Positions 1 to 3,133 of a stretch of 3,133 nt of DNA are shown here, in pieces. The number at the start of each line of letters is the position of its first letter. The first letter of the stretch is position 1. The stretch comes from a plasmid. The stretch lies in the NCBI RefSeq assembly GCF_057098645.1, contig NZ_JBXSPU010000007.1; one strand, given 5' to 3'. A model generated the notes under the pieces. The model was not told where the DNA came from and did not search any database. It worked only from the letters and a program-made list of their open reading frames with translations. Both the position numbers and the translations under genes were made by a program.

Positions 1-189
1 GATTGTATTGTTTATCGCATTACGCAGAGCAACCTCAATCATCTGGACAAGACAAAAAAAATCGCCAGACAGATCTTGGTAGGCAACGTATGCCCCAACC
101 TTTTCTTGATCAGTAGCGCACCCAAGAAATGTTTCATAGAAAGATAATCTTGGTACAGAAATTGAGCTAATTAAACTTGTTGTATCCAT
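1..189 (-). CDS. 5' portion (N-terminal 63 aa) of an Abi_2-family (AbiD/AbiF-like) abortive-infection protein; ORF runs off the left edge
   Basis: Hand translation of the minus strand from ATG at 189 gives MDTTSLISSISVPRLSFYETFLGCATDQEKVGAYVAYQDLSGDFFCLVQMIEVALRNAINNTI with no stop before position 1. An in-frame stop lies 3 codons upstream of this ATG. The motif IEVALRN matches the N-terminal 'iEvalR' block of Pfam Abi_2, recalled from memory. Not in the supplied ORF track because the ORF is open-ended. Confidence 0.5.
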   Translation of the reverse strand, partial: MDTTSLISSISVPRLSFYETFLGCATDQEKVGAYVAYQDLSGDFFCLVQMIEVALRNAINNTI

Positions 190-290: not shown

Positions 291-338
291 AAATATAACA
301 AAAAAGCCCACTACAGAGTGGGCTTTTTTGTTATATTT
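291..338. terminator. Bidirectional rho-independent terminator: perfect 22-bp inverted repeat with 4-nt loop
   Basis: aaatataacaaaaaagcccact-acag-agtgggcttttttgttatattt. GC core gcccact/agtgggc flanked by an A-run on one side and a T-run on the other, so either strand yields stem plus U-tract. Confidence 0.75.
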
Positions 339-430
339 ATCTATATGAAACAACCAGTTATAGTTATTGTTTCATAATAAGAATTGAATACTCTTCACAA
401 TCCACAACATCAGAAAATACTTTGCTGCCA

Positions 431-458
431 ATTTACCATAACTCCCCTTACGCGCACC
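431..458 (-). other. cer-like Xer (XerC/XerD) multimer-resolution core site; accessory region probably extends to about 640
   Basis: The minus strand reads GGTGCGCGTAA-GGGGAG-TTATGGTAAAT. Compare the ColE1 cer arms GGTGCGTACAA / TTATGGTAAAT and the psi XerC arm GGTGCGCGCAA. A 14-bp palindrome tgcatagctatgca at 559-572, about 100 bp to the XerC side, could be an ArgR-box-like accessory element. Confidence 0.5.
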
Positions 459-647
459 GCTAAAACGCGCTGAACGCGATTCTGCCGCAAACACCGCAAA
501 AAGAGATGTTTTACCCAGTGAAAACCGGAAAAATGCGTCAGGACCGTTTTCAGCTCACTGCATAGCTATGCATGAAAGTGAATGGCGATCGGTTTGGGGC
601 CTTACGGCGTTCATACCGTCTGTTTTCGACAGTTTCTCTCCGGGAAG

Positions 648-971
648 CTAATCTGCCATAAGCCTGGATAACAGGGCCCGGTGATACTCCGTAATAGCGA
701 TCAGCACCTCCGCATACTCTCTGTCCCCGACACGCTTGCCGTCGATAAAGAGTTTTTTCTGTAACGCCCCCAGTCTCATAACTTCTTTCAGTACCCGATC
801 ATCAGTCAGTGAGTTAACTTTCTTACCGAGAGCTGCCGCCCGTAAAAAACCGGAAACGGTCTTGCCGCATTCAGCAGCCCTTTTTCTGATTTCCTGGTCT
901 TCTTCTGCCGTCAGACGAACAGGGCGACTGATAGCCCGCCTGCGCGTATTACTTCCACTTCGTTTTGTCAT
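648..971 (-). CDS. mbeC: MobC/MbeC-family ribbon-helix-helix mobilisation accessory protein (107 aa)
   Basis: The track ORF at 648..1061 contains RPVRLTAEEDQEIRKRAAECGKTVSGFLRAAAL, which fits the MobC-family signature RLT.eE..I..A..G.S.S..lR.AL. The likely start is ATG at 971 (MTKRSGSNTRRR...), with GGAG 9 nt upstream. The longer track ORF would run through the oriT inverted repeats. Stop is TAG at 648-650. Confidence 0.75.
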   Translation of the reverse strand: MTKRSGSNTRRRAISRPVRLTAEEDQEIRKRAAECGKTVSGFLRAAALGKKVNSLTDDRVLKEVMRLGALQKKLFIDGKRVGDREYAEVLIAITEYHRALLSRLMAD

Positions 972-994
972 AAAACATGGCTCCGTATCTGACA

Positions 995-1075
995 TGGGGT
1001 GTCGGGGCGAAGCCCTGACCAGGGTAATTGTAATAGCGCGCATGTATGCGCGGTATAACAATTACACATCCTGTC
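995..1075. other. ColE1-family oriT / bom (nic region) with inverted repeats
   Basis: ggggtgtcggggcgaagccctgaccagg closely matches the pBR322/ColE1 bom sequence gggtgtcggggcgcagccatgacccag. Imperfect inverted repeat gtcggggc-gaa-gccctgac. Hairpin cgcgca-tgta-tgcgcg at 1036-1051. Outer inverted repeat gtaattgt...acaattac. Lies immediately upstream of mbeC, the typical oriT-mobC arrangement. Confidence 0.6.
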
Positions 1076-1185
1076 CTGTCAGCAAGTTCGAATTACCGAC
1101 AAAGGCACGGCAGTTTTTTGGCAGTGACAGTATTGTCAGGCAGAAATGCCCGTCAAAGAGTCAGACGACAGAATACCGGCGGCAA

Positions 1186-1255: not shown

Positions 1256-1450
1256 ATGAACAAGCAGCAGCAAACCGCACTTAACATGGCAAAATTCATA
1301 AAAAGCCAGAGCCTGACGCTGCTCGAAAAACTGGACTCACTCGATGCTGATGCACAGGCCGCCATGTGTGAGAAACTGCACGAACTCGCAGAAGAACTCC
1401 AGAACAGCATACAGACACGCTTTGAATCGGAAAGTGGCACCGGGGAATAA
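1256..1450 (+). CDS. rop: Rop/Rom (repressor of primer; RNA I-RNA II pairing modulator), 64 aa
   Basis: MNKQQQTALNMAKFIKSQSLTLLEKLDSLDADAQAAMCEKLHELAEELQNSIQTRFESESGTGE aligns along its length with ColE1 Rop MTKQEKTALNMARFIRSQTLTLLEKLNELDADEQADICESLHDHADELYRSCLARF... Confidence 0.9.
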   Translation: MNKQQQTALNMAKFIKSQSLTLLEKLDSLDADAQAAMCEKLHELAEELQNSIQTRFESESGTGE

Positions 1451-2092: not shown

Positions 2093-2193
2093 ACAAGTTT
2101 TGGTGACTGCGCTCCTCTTAAGCCAGTTACCGAGGTTCAGAAACTTGCCGGTTGCTGAACCTTCGAAAAACCACCTTGCCGGGTGGTTTTTTC
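2093..2193 (+). ncRNA. RNA I (antisense copy-number control RNA)
   Basis: acaagttttggtgactgcgctcctcttaagccagttacc...aaccttcgaaaaaccaccttgccgggtggttttttcg parallels ColE1 RNA I ACAGUAUUUGGUAUCUGCGCUCUGCUGAAGCCAGUUACC...GGUGGUUUUUUUGUUU. Terminal hairpin ccacc-ttgccg-ggtgg followed by a U-tract. Confidence 0.75.
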
Positions 2194-2200
2194 GTTTTTA

Positions 2201-2569: not shown

Positions 2570-3133
2570 TCAACCGGCTACCTTAAGCTCCCTGCACTTA
2601 ATCCTCCCTATAATCCCCATAACATACTCTATCGTGCAGCGTTCATAAAAGCGCCTATCGTGCCCAATAAACTCAATAAGTTCCTTTTTCTCGTTAGAGA
2701 CGATACTCAAGGCATTCATTAAAAAATTGAACTCTTTCAACATATTATTTATGGCTTGACTATGCGACTTGCAGTGGTGTTTTTTCCAAATAGGCTCATG
2801 GTGAAAAAGTCGATTCCTAAACAAAAGAACTTTATGAAACTCGTCAAACAACGCTTTAACCTTCATATCCCCCCCACCCAAAGGATTCTTCGCATGAGGA
2901 AATGTTTTTGCCTTGTTCTCTGGAGTCCAGATGTAGCACGGCCTTTGCGTATCCCTATATGGGGCATCTAACATATAAACCCAAAAGCCAAAGGTTAGAC
3001 GGCAAATAACATCATCATCCGTATACCTTACGCCACACTCATCTAGCGCTTTTTGTTTCGCATTTAAAACAAGATCCTGAGATTTCTTTGTTTGAGGTAT
3101 AGAGTCGTACCAAGCAGGCCCATGATTAGCTTT
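2570..3133 (-). CDS. 3' portion (C-terminal 187 aa) of an Abi_2-family (AbiD/AbiF-like) abortive-infection protein; ORF open at the right edge
   Basis: The track ORF 2570..2974 extends in frame, with no stop found by hand translation, to 3133: ...KANHGPAWYDSIPQTKKSQDLVLNAKQKALDECGVRYTDDDVICRLTFGFWVYMLDAPY... It contains LTFGFW (Abi_2 middle motif 'lsFG') and LFRNRLFHHEPIW (Abi_2 C-terminal motif 'RN..AHH..lW'). Stop is TGA at 2570-2572. Confidence 0.7.
   Translation of the reverse strand, partial: KANHGPAWYDSIPQTKKSQDLVLNAKQKALDECGVRYTDDDVICRLTFGFWVYMLDAPYRDTQRPCYIWTPENKAKTFPHAKNPLGGGDMKVKALFDEFHKVLLFRNRLFHHEPIWKKHHCKSHSQAINNMLKEFNFLMNALSIVSNEKKELIEFIGHDRRFYERCTIEYVMGIIGRIKCRELKVAG

Follow-up and report, generated by a model that had tools for sequence, protein, structure and literature searches.

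The plasmid analyzed here is very probably a complete member of the ColE1-type NikA-oriT family, which carries an R64/IncI1-type origin of transfer (oriT) together with its own NikA and borrows the relaxase NikB from an I-complex plasmid. The window, i.e., the whole stretch of 3133 bp that was analyzed, proved to be a complete circular plasmid of E. coli, and 12 identical circular records of 3133 bp were found in the databases. Since the window is the entire replicon, no unseen part is left to hold a relaxase gene, a case for which the original prediction had allowed.

Replicon and Family Membership

The replication functions and the cargo gene were located as follows.

1256..1450, plus strand: rop (Pfam Rop, 114 bits), transcribed divergently from nikA
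2095..2195, plus strand: RNAI (Rfam RF00106, 95.9 bits), ColE1-type replication control
2570..3133, minus strand: 3' part of the cargo gene (250 aa), encoding a PD-T4-5-like/Abi_2-like candidate phage-defence protein; the gene spans the window ends
1..189, minus strand: 5' part of the cargo gene, with the ATG at 189-187

The replicon is of the ColE1 type, with RNAI/RNAII and rop, and its ori region shares 84% DNA identity with ColE1. The segment 428-2197 was collinear with seven other family plasmids, the conserved backbone reaching its limit near RNAI at about 2197-2214, and the cargo beyond the Xer core was unrelated among them. Judged by this backbone and its genes, the plasmid is a member of the known NikA-oriT ColE1-like group with pCERC7, NTP16 and pU302S, a group whose definition goes back to Moran & Hall 2017 (Plasmid 89:42), as cited in PMC9282650. 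It resembles these plasmids in NikA, in oriT (20-nt inverted repeat and nick core), in the rop replicon, in the junction from nikA to the Xer site, in the absence of nikB and in the variable cargo that abuts the Xer core. It differs from them in the cargo itself, which is a PD-T4-5-like gene here and aph(3')-Ia, NERD, NYN or other genes elsewhere. Plasmid pMUT1 of E. coli Nissle 1917 evidently belongs to the group as well; its deposited record (3173 bp) matched the nikA-oriT module at 98.3%. With at least 80% query coverage, the module was present in 263 of 5426 complete E. coli genomes, and its carriers were small plasmids in every case among the records listed. The plasmid and its transfer module are ordinary and already known, the family having been described in 2017 with experimental support.

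Accessory Protein

The predicted ORF of 107 aa was found on the minus strand (971..648). It lies directly downstream of an oriT with repeat and nick core, as in R64-type NikA systems.

648..971, minus strand: nikA; product of 107 aa, a ribbon-helix-helix accessory protein of the relaxosome (WP_000166966.1; PGAP name 'MobA')

According to profile, structure and alignment matches, its product is a NikA-type accessory protein, not MbeC/MobC. It scored 66 bits on the Pfam NikA-like model (PF21983; cutoff 27) and 113 bits on the NCBIfam MobA model (NF041264; cutoff 80), and it matched PDB entry 2BA3, the N-terminal domain of R64 NikA, with an E value of 2.4e-5. Identity to NikA of IncI1 and IncB/O plasmids amounted to 52-54% by alignment and 53-55% by tblastn. 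The divergence was uneven, with 60-61% identity in the C-terminal half and 42-48% in the N-terminal half. WP_000166966.1 is annotated on the record of an identical plasmid and as NikA of pU302S, and the protein is 99% identical to the 12-kDa protein of NTP16 (Q03449).

In the original prediction, the module had been taken for a decayed ColE1 (MOB-HEN) region, in which bom/oriT and mbeC were left after deletion of mbeA/B/D and MbeA would come from a co-resident ColE1-family plasmid. Such an origin is extremely improbable and was already refuted at the sequence level, although the plasmid has several traits in common with the bom/oriT-mbeC-mbeA(BD) region of ColE1 (MOB-P5/HEN). The replicon is of the ColE1 type, the module adjoins rop, and a ribbon-helix-helix accessory gene occupies the position of mbeC, divergent from rop, and encodes 107 aa, exactly the length of MbeC. 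ColE1 MbeC also reached 35 bits on the Pfam NikA-like model; thus, NikA and MbeC are distant relatives. However, BLASTP of NikA against ColE1 MbeC returned no alignment at E <= 100. The Pfam MobC model (PF05713) matched ColE1 MbeC with 46.5 bits, whereas NikA gave no match to it at E <= 0.1, so that by HMM the ORF is not of the MobC family and the name MbeC/MobC does not apply.

Origin of Transfer

Upstream of nikA, the inverted repeats of the original prediction were recovered as parts of a longer region.

991..1098, plus strand (nicked strand): whole R64-type oriT, aligning to the region upstream of nikA of IncI1 and IncB/O
1001-1008/1012-1019, no strand: inverted repeat of 8 bp, GTCGGGGC gaa GCCCTGAC, part of the block 997-1020
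1024-1043/1046-1065, no strand: 20-nt inverted repeat
1066..1080, plus strand: nick region ACATCCTG|TCCTGTC, predicted nick at 1073/1074, 8 nt from the repeat

Going by its alignment and its nick motif ACATCCTG|T, oriT is of the R64/IncI1 type, not of the ColE1 type. Over 991-1080, identity was 80% to IncI1, 77% to IncB/O and 89-100% to six other family members. As in the oriT of R64 (IncI1) and IncB/O/K/Z plasmids, an 8-bp repeat and a long repeat are followed, at a distance of 8 nt, by the nick core. The repeat of R64 is 17 nt long, whereas the one found here has 20 nt and carries base changes; a few positions of the repeat arm differ from IncI1 and IncB/O. When folded as single-stranded DNA, the inverted-repeat region was more stable than its shuffles (z = -7). 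The nick core CACATCCTGTCCTGT was identical in the IncI1 comparator and in 6/6 family members in which oriT was found, and one base differed in the IncB/O comparator. By analogy with R64/RP4, the nick is presumably placed between 1073 and 1074. The nick-proximal arm (1046-1065) corresponds to repeat A of R64 and is predicted to be bound by NikA, by analogy with the R64 work of Furuya & Komano. In published comparisons, the family oriT is about 78% identical to that of R64 (PMC9282650).

The homology to ColE1 bom on which the original prediction had relied is real and short: 23 of the 24 bases of 997-1020 match, and this 24-nt block, GGGTGTCGGGGCG.AGCCCTGACC, occurs in both plasmids. It is, however, equally part of the IncI1 and IncB/O oriT and does not speak for a ColE1 descent. 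In contrast to the ColE1 region, the nick region is of the IncI1/IncP type. The ColE1 nick motif TACTGG|CTTA had no relevant match in the plasmid at up to 3 mismatches, and it was also absent from the segment between rop and ori, i.e., the position of bom in ColE1. The module thus differs from the ColE1 region as a whole in its nick motif, in an accessory protein that lacks a MobC domain and shows no similarity to MbeC by BLASTP, and in the lack of relaxase, MbeB and MbeD.

Absence of a Relaxase Gene

As predicted, no mbeA-like relaxase gene was found. A tblastn search of the circularized plasmid with ColE1 MbeA, MbeB and MbeD and with NikB of IncI1 and IncB/O yielded chance-level matches only (best E 0.06), so remnants of mbeA/B/D were not seen, and a megablast search of plasmids with ColE1 mbeA added nothing further. 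On the minus strand between 354 and 647, the longest ORF comprised 40 aa, within a stop-to-stop frame of 60 codons, in agreement with the original statement that no long ORF is present there. The sole other long ORF of the plasmid encodes the Abi_2/PD-T4-5-like protein. The module shares with the R64/I-complex module the fold family of NikA and the position of nikA beside oriT, but it lacks nikB and resides on a 3-kb multicopy ColE1-type replicon.

The gene nikA has no co-operonic nikB; past its stop at 648, the sequence is cer-like. A MAFFT match of the sequence after the stop to the nikB junction was rejected as an artefact, since in local alignment of the 87 nt past the stop with the IncI1 nikA-nikB junction 1313 of 2000 shuffles scored as well. 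Therefore, a deletion breakpoint cannot be located. In the comparison with related plasmids, which had been proposed for finding it, the junction from nikA to the Xer site was the same in 7/7 family members compared. Across the family, codon differences in nikA were synonymous in 32 cases and non-synonymous in 1, an excess that indicates purifying selection and thus a gene that is not decaying. The constant junction, the lack of a nikB remnant and the 32 versus 1 codon differences speak against the view that the module is truncated or decayed. According to a published review, pCERC7, the founding family member, took up the oriT region of R64 (PMC11389934).

Purifying selection reveals that nikA has a function, not which one. 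It is highly doubtful that the gene is kept for a role outside transfer, as a repressor, antitoxin-like protein or maintenance factor, with oriT as a relic. Ribbon-helix-helix proteins often are repressors or antitoxins, NikA gave weak sub-threshold matches to TacA1 and RelB-antitoxin models, and many hosts are without a helper. On the other hand, conservation in the family extends from nikA to the oriT elements, with an invariant nick core, and no toxin gene adjoins nikA, the Xer site coming directly after it. Moreover, family members were mobilized (PMC8623487), and pMUT1 lost no stability when its nikA was deleted; its stability was even extended (PMC10859263). The latter result also weakens the proposal that the module was retained for overlapping other functions.

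Xer Site and Terminator-Like Hairpin

Beyond the nikA stop, an Xer site and then a terminator-like hairpin were found, in the order predicted.

459..645, minus strand: cer-like accessory sequence between nikA stop and Xer core, aligned to ColE1 cer
431..458, minus strand: Xer core, GGTGCGCGTAA-GGGGAG-TTATGGTAAAT
448-458, minus strand: XerC arm GGTGCGCGTAA
442-447, minus strand: central region GGGGAG, 6 bp
431-441, minus strand: XerD arm TTATGGTAAAT, identical to the XerD arm of ColE1 cer
293..336, no strand: bidirectional terminator-like hairpin, 13-bp perfect stem 300-312/317-329 flanked by A and T runs

In cer-like sites, accessory sequence of about 180 bp with an ArgR box lies upstream of the XerC arm. 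Here, the palindrome TGCATAGCTATGCA (559-572), which resembles an ArgR box, aligned to the corresponding position of ColE1 cer. The alignment of 410-700 with ColE1 cer, which included this position, had a mean column identity of 72% overall. Established knowledge of cer leads us to assume that ArgR and PepA act at the accessory sequence. The central region comprises 6 bp here as compared to 8 bp in ColE1 cer and 7 or 8 bp in the members compared, and its length was 6, 7 or 8 bp across the family. The conserved backbone stops at this central region, and beyond the XerD arm the DNA of the family members is unrelated. The Xer site would resolve multimers, and it forms the junction to cargo segments that are unrelated from one family member to the next. 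It is conceivable, if rather improbable, that the variable central region at the boundary of backbone and cargo is a trace of Xer-mediated shuffling, by which ColE1-like plasmids exchange cargo modules such as defence genes.

The hairpin is situated in the variable cargo segment, beyond the Xer core and downstream of the region in which the cargo gene starts. Sub-threshold Rfam matches at about 217-385 (Thr, Phe and Trp leaders, miRNAs) merely reflect this hairpin and were discarded.

Helper Plasmid

With oriT and nikA and without a relaxase gene, the plasmid can be mobile only if a relaxase is supplied in trans. To this extent the original prediction held; its choice of ColE1 MbeA as the enzyme did not. 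Since the module is of the NikA type and its nick core is that of IncI1, the helper enzyme is predicted to be NikB of an I-complex plasmid. By analogy with R64, NikA would bind the nick-proximal repeat arm (1046-1065) and bend the DNA, and the bent DNA would present the nick site to the NikB of an I-complex plasmid (IncI1, probably also B/O/K/Z) that either resides in the same cell or enters it. NikB would then cleave near 1073|1074, and export of the strand would rely on the helper, which supplies both the coupling protein and a type IV secretion system. NikA is presumably required for nicking, as the biochemistry of R64 implies. The half of NikA that binds DNA, at the N terminus, and the repeat have diverged together, while the nick core on which NikB would act is the same as in the IncI1 comparator. 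This pattern would explain why the plasmid kept its own nikA and dispensed with nikB.

Mobilization of family members by IncI1 is known from the literature. Plasmid pU302S, which possesses nikA and oriT only, was mobilized by IncI1, not by IncX plasmids (PMC8623487), and NTP16 was mobilized by R64, as cited in PMC9282650. For the family, IncI1 was effective as a helper, and IncX and IncP were not (PMC8623487, PMC9282650). The F plasmid mobilized pU302S at low frequency, and a better-matched, unidentified helper was considered possible (PMC9282650).

It is conceivable, if unlikely, that oriT is a real transfer origin whose main natural helper is not IncI1, so that a relaxase would be recruited from another conjugative family, known or not yet identified, or promiscuously from several families. 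Apart from the F-dependent transfer of pU302S and the helper raised in that study, the moderate identity to IncI1 (NikA about 53%, oriT about 80%) and to the I complex in general (53-55% and 77-80%, respectively) would agree with such a helper. In three hosts of the identical plasmid, no co-resident plasmid typed as IncI1 or B/O/K/Z was found among those listed via neighbouring accession numbers, a list that may be incomplete; three hosts are too few for a co-occurrence statistic. An IncI2 plasmid in one of these hosts was rejected as an obvious helper: its oriT is unrelated, and the identity of its MobC amounts to 27% over a stretch of 66 residues.

Database searches, the identical nick core of the IncI1 comparator and the mobilization experiments with IncI1, IncX and IncP stand against a main helper other than IncI1. 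In a tblastn search of the 72,556 plasmids of PLSDB, NikA matched at >=95% on small plasmids and at <=55% on conjugative plasmids, apart from 7 records at 60-80%; among the other records, no closer conjugative relative was found. A query with the 64%-identical protein P0032 did not retrieve the PLSDB records at 60-80%. In a search of 5.8 billion proteins, all NikA relatives with more than 60% identity were encoded on contigs of less than 8 kb, so no closer conjugative relative was seen there, and a scan of GTDB genomes for a closer NikA returned contaminant-like small contigs only.

A broader proposal, separate from the shuffling of cargo at the Xer site, has NikA acting as an adaptor that recruits relaxases of more than one conjugative family, or of a not-yet-identified helper group, rather than strictly those of IncI1. 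This idea, which we consider rather improbable, would agree with the weak mobilization by F, with an identity to R64 that is no more than moderate and with the three hosts, in which no I-complex plasmid was found among those listed. Borrowing of NikB from an I-complex plasmid is the preferred reading.

Annotation and Related Mobile Elements

For the gene, nikA is the appropriate name, since it is an accessory gene of the I-complex type of relaxosome; it should be called neither mbeC/mobC nor a relaxase gene. The plasmid should be listed as one without a relaxase, dependent on a helper for both relaxase and mating apparatus, and the 'MOBF relaxase' call of MOB-suite for the NikA-oriT family is misleading. 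The sequence has been deposited at least 12 times and holds little new biology; the value of the analysis lies in annotation.

Relaxase-less 'pOriT' plasmids and hitcher elements, e.g., pBuzz, are alike in that the relaxase is supplied in trans and in that transfer rests on an oriT which mimics a conjugative plasmid's oriT or descends from it (Ares-Arroyo et al. 2023, PMC10123127; PMC11389934). In contrast to them, the NikA-oriT family additionally retains its own accessory protein and can thus be regarded as intermediate between oriT-only and relaxase-encoding mobilizable plasmids. With regard to its cargo, the plasmid represents a further very small mobilizable plasmid that carries a candidate anti-phage gene as its only cargo.

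A Complete Plasmid without a Relaxase Gene

A megablast search of PLSDB returned 12 records, each exactly 3133 bp long and with 99.9–100% identity over the full length of the window; they originated from E. coli and one Salmonella, with human, pig, chicken, turkey and water as sources. Ten more plasmids, of 3125–3131 bp, showed 94.7–97.3% identity. The start of the window is rotated by 557 bp relative to the identical record NZ_CP116992.1. Given the 12 full-length matches, the window is a complete small circular plasmid, and therefore there is no unseen part of the replicon in which a relaxase gene could be hidden.

The circularised window was searched by tblastn with MbeA, MbeB and MbeD of ColE1 and with NikB, the I-complex relaxase, from IncI1-type and IncB/O plasmids. 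These queries gave no match beyond chance (best E = 0.06 in a tiny database); NikA of IncI1 gave E = 9e-34 in the same search. The sole long ORF besides nikA (250 aa, 189..1 plus 3133..2570, wrapping the window ends) encodes an Abi_2/PD-T4-5-like protein and not a relaxase. On the minus strand, the interval 354–647 contains ORFs of at most 40 aa. Thus, the predicted absence of a relaxase gene, and of a long minus-strand ORF in this interval, was confirmed for the whole circle. MOB-suite typing (via PLSDB) labels NZ_CP116992.1, NC_006815.1, NC_002090.1 and others as "mobilizable; relaxase MOBF". Since these plasmids lack a relaxase, the label probably reflects mis-scored NikA.

The Mobilisation Module Is of the I-Complex Type

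The module comprises the following features:

971..648, minus strand: nikA ORF, 107 aa
1001-1008/1012-1019: 8-bp inverted repeat upstream of nikA
1024-1043/1046-1065: 20-nt inverted repeat upstream of nikA

The 107-aa ORF, which the original prediction had described as an MbeC/MobC accessory gene, is real, but its family is a different one. Its product scored 66 bits with Pfam NikA-like (cutoff 27) and 113 bits with the NCBIfam model "MobA" NF041264 (cutoff 80), and matched PDB 2BA3, the structure of the R64 NikA ribbon-helix-helix domain at the N-terminus (E 2.4e-5). With Pfam MobC, no match was obtained at E ≤ 0.1, and MobC membership by HMM thus fails, an outcome that the original prediction itself had named as refuting. 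In contrast, MbeC of ColE1 scored 46.5 bits with Pfam MobC and just 35 bits with NikA-like, and BLASTP detected no similarity between MbeC and the window protein. Therefore, the two are at most distant members of an extended ribbon-helix-helix accessory superfamily.

When PLSDB was searched by tblastn with NikA, identities fell on two levels. At least 95% identity was observed for 382 records, the matches listed among them all being small plasmids of a few kb, and less than 60% for about 3700 records, topped by IncI1 and IncI1/B/O conjugative plasmids (53–55%), in which the gene is annotated nikA and followed by nikB. Leaving aside 7 PLSDB records at 60–80% identity, a conjugative plasmid with a closer NikA was not found in PLSDB, a collection of 5.8 billion proteins or GTDB genomes. 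Very small GTDB contigs (L017-L027), some with very low coverage, carry the same NikA (98–100% identity) in assemblies labelled Agrobacterium, Nocardiopsis, Hymenobacter, Clostridium, Streptococcus, Bacillus and Oscillospiraceae MAG; these copies most likely stem from small plasmids of enterobacteria that contaminated the assemblies.

The inverted repeats expected upstream of the ORF were both found, and single-stranded DNA of this region folded far better than shuffles (z = -7). Positions 991-1080 shared 80% identity with the DNA upstream of nikA in the IncI1-type plasmid and 77% in the IncB/O plasmid, and the order of elements is the same: the short (8-bp) inverted repeat comes first, the long one second, and the nick motif follows 8 nt further on. 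This motif is of the IncI/IncP type (ACATCCTG|T; YATCCTGY match at 1067-1074), and its core CACATCCTGTCCTGT is shared without change by the IncI1 comparator and all family members where an oriT was found. By analogy with the R64 work of Furuya and Komano, we take the nick to lie between 1073 and 1074 and the nick-proximal repeat arm to be the NikA site. The ColE1 nick motif TACTGG|CTTA was absent from the window. Thus, alignment and nick motif identify an IncI-type and not a ColE1-type oriT. The bom homology noted before is real, with 23 of 24 bases of 997-1020 matching ColE1 bom (1498-1521 of the ColE1 record), but it is not diagnostic of a ColE1-type oriT, since the block of about 24 nt with the 8-bp inverted repeat (GGGTGTCGGGGCG.AGCCCTGACC) is common to ColE1 bom and the IncI1 and IncB/O oriTs, although nick sites and relaxases differ between them. 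A second exact YATCCTGY match (CATCCTGT) lies on the minus strand at 1468-1475, in the segment that separates rop from the replication origin. This match adjoins no inverted repeat, at least two matches occurred in 4 of 200 shuffles, and it is probably due to chance.

The original prediction had correctly spotted an orphan oriT and accessory gene without a relaxase next to an Xer site; its ColE1/MbeC/MbeA assignment was wrong. The module is an I-complex-type NikA-oriT on helper-dependent small plasmids.

A Known Plasmid Family and Its Mobilisation

In PMC9282650, Moran & Hall (Plasmid 2017, 89:42) are credited with defining a group of ColE1-like small plasmids, among them pCERC7, pU302S and NTP16. 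The NikA of these plasmids is the same throughout (53% identity to R64 NikA), their oriT is highly conserved and contains inverted repeats of 20 bp, and all of them lack NikB. The oriT of pU302S is about 78% identical to that of R64 (PMC9282650), and a review described pCERC7, the founding member, as a plasmid that took up the oriT region of R64 (PMC11389934). Every feature listed for the group is present in the window plasmid. RefSeq protein WP_000166966.1 occurs on the identical record and on pU302S alike, and the "12 kDa protein" of NTP16 is 99% identical to the window NikA. Of 5426 complete E. coli genomes, 263 carried the nikA-oriT module (at least 80% query coverage); among the records are 3173-bp plasmids (ATCC 25922 and others), a Nissle 1917 plasmid record and 3306-bp plasmids of O157:H7 strains. 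The family is already known, widespread and experimentally characterised.

With nikA and oriT only, pU302S was mobilised by IncI1 but not by IncX plasmids (PMC8623487); IncP tra genes gave no mobilisation, and F only about 1e-6 (PMC9282650). R64 mobilises NTP16, as cited in PMC9282650. Compared with IncI1 NikA, the window protein showed 42–48% identity in the N-terminal DNA-binding half and 60–61% in the C-terminal half, and the nick-adjacent repeat arm differs from the IncI1 repeat at a few positions, next to an identical nick core. The simplest reading would be a two-step scheme: the plasmid-encoded NikA may recognise the plasmid's own diverged repeat, and the conserved C-terminal half together with the unchanged nick core would provide compatibility with the helper's NikB, which would make the cut and then lead the strand through the secretion system of the helper. 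Experimental support for this scheme is the IncI1-dependent mobilisation of plasmids with the same NikA.

For three hosts that carry the identical 3133-bp plasmid, co-resident plasmids were listed via neighbouring accession numbers; the replicons found in this way were IncF, IncN, IncX1, IncY, IncI2, IncR/X1 and Col-type, with no IncI1/B/O/K/Z among them. The accessory protein and oriT of the co-resident IncI2 plasmid are unrelated to those of the window. Evidently, the plasmid persists without a helper. Three hosts are far too few to judge IncI1 as the main natural helper, about which doubt was likewise raised in PMC9282650.

The nikA-Xer Junction Is Maintained

The sequence directly after the nikA stop aligns to ColE1 cer, and the predicted Xer site and terminator do follow the ORF:

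431-458, minus-strand reading GGTGCGCGTAA-GGGGAG-TTATGGTAAAT: Xer core, ending the cer-like sequence
293-336: strong hairpin with flanking A/T runs

This arrangement had been interpreted as a truncated or decayed mob region. In seven family members compared with the window, the backbone was collinear over a stretch that begins at the Xer core (window 428/431/453) and ends shortly after RNAI (2197-2214), with 90–92% overall DNA identity. In six members, nikA could be aligned over its full length; relative to the window copy, these genes showed 32 synonymous codon differences and one non-synonymous difference (V to I), counts that are not phylogenetically independent. NTP16 nikA has a one-codon deletion. 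This pattern points to purifying selection on nikA. Neither the nikA-nikB junction nor the 5' end of nikB resembled the 87 nt after the stop, for which scores as good were reached by 1313 of 2000 shuffles. Because of the collinear backbone, the codon pattern and the lack of nikB similarity, the junction is, judged from these comparisons, old and fixed and not a recent truncation. Retention through an overlapping maintenance function had been offered as an alternative; deletion of nikA from pMUT1 did not impair stability but actually extended it (PMC10859263), which counts against this explanation.

The accessory sequence was common to all eight plasmids compared, as was the XerD arm TTATGGTAAAT; the XerC arm GGTGCGCGTAA was present in seven, p19A14_1 having GGTGCGTACAA. 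Among the otherwise collinear backbones, the central region (window 442-447) varied in sequence and length: it has 6 bp in the window, 8 bp in pMS6192D and p19A14_1, and 7 bp in the remaining five plasmids, which include pU302S and NTP16. ColE1 cer has 8 bp in contrast to the 6 bp of the window; dif and psi have 6-bp central regions. Past the XerD arm, the DNA is unrelated among the plasmids compared. Such a pattern would be compatible with an exchange of cargo through recombination at the Xer core. Between terminator and Xer core, the variable segment contains a 10-bp perfect inverted repeat (TATGAAACAA / TTGTTTCATA, 344-376) with a 13-nt spacer.

Cargo Gene and Variable Segment

2570-3133 plus 1-189, minus strand: cargo gene, 250 aa, wrapping the ends; sole cargo gene

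The cargo protein matched PADLOC PD-T4-5 (E 6.6e-30) and, weakly, Pfam Abi_2 and PADLOC AbiD, and its sequence includes an R-x4-H motif (RNRLFH) as known from HEPN nucleases. Since its homologues were mostly located on 1–7 kb contigs, it looks like a gene of small plasmids, with a candidate anti-phage role. Convergent with it is a plus-strand unit at 2300-2545, in which a promoter-like site (TTAAGA-17-TATAAT, 2300-2328) precedes a 26-nt perfect inverted repeat (2464-2489/2514-2539, 24-nt spacer). An annotated ORF of 47–49 aa (2396-2545) without a family match overlaps this repeat. The unit may represent a terminator or encode a small RNA or small protein.
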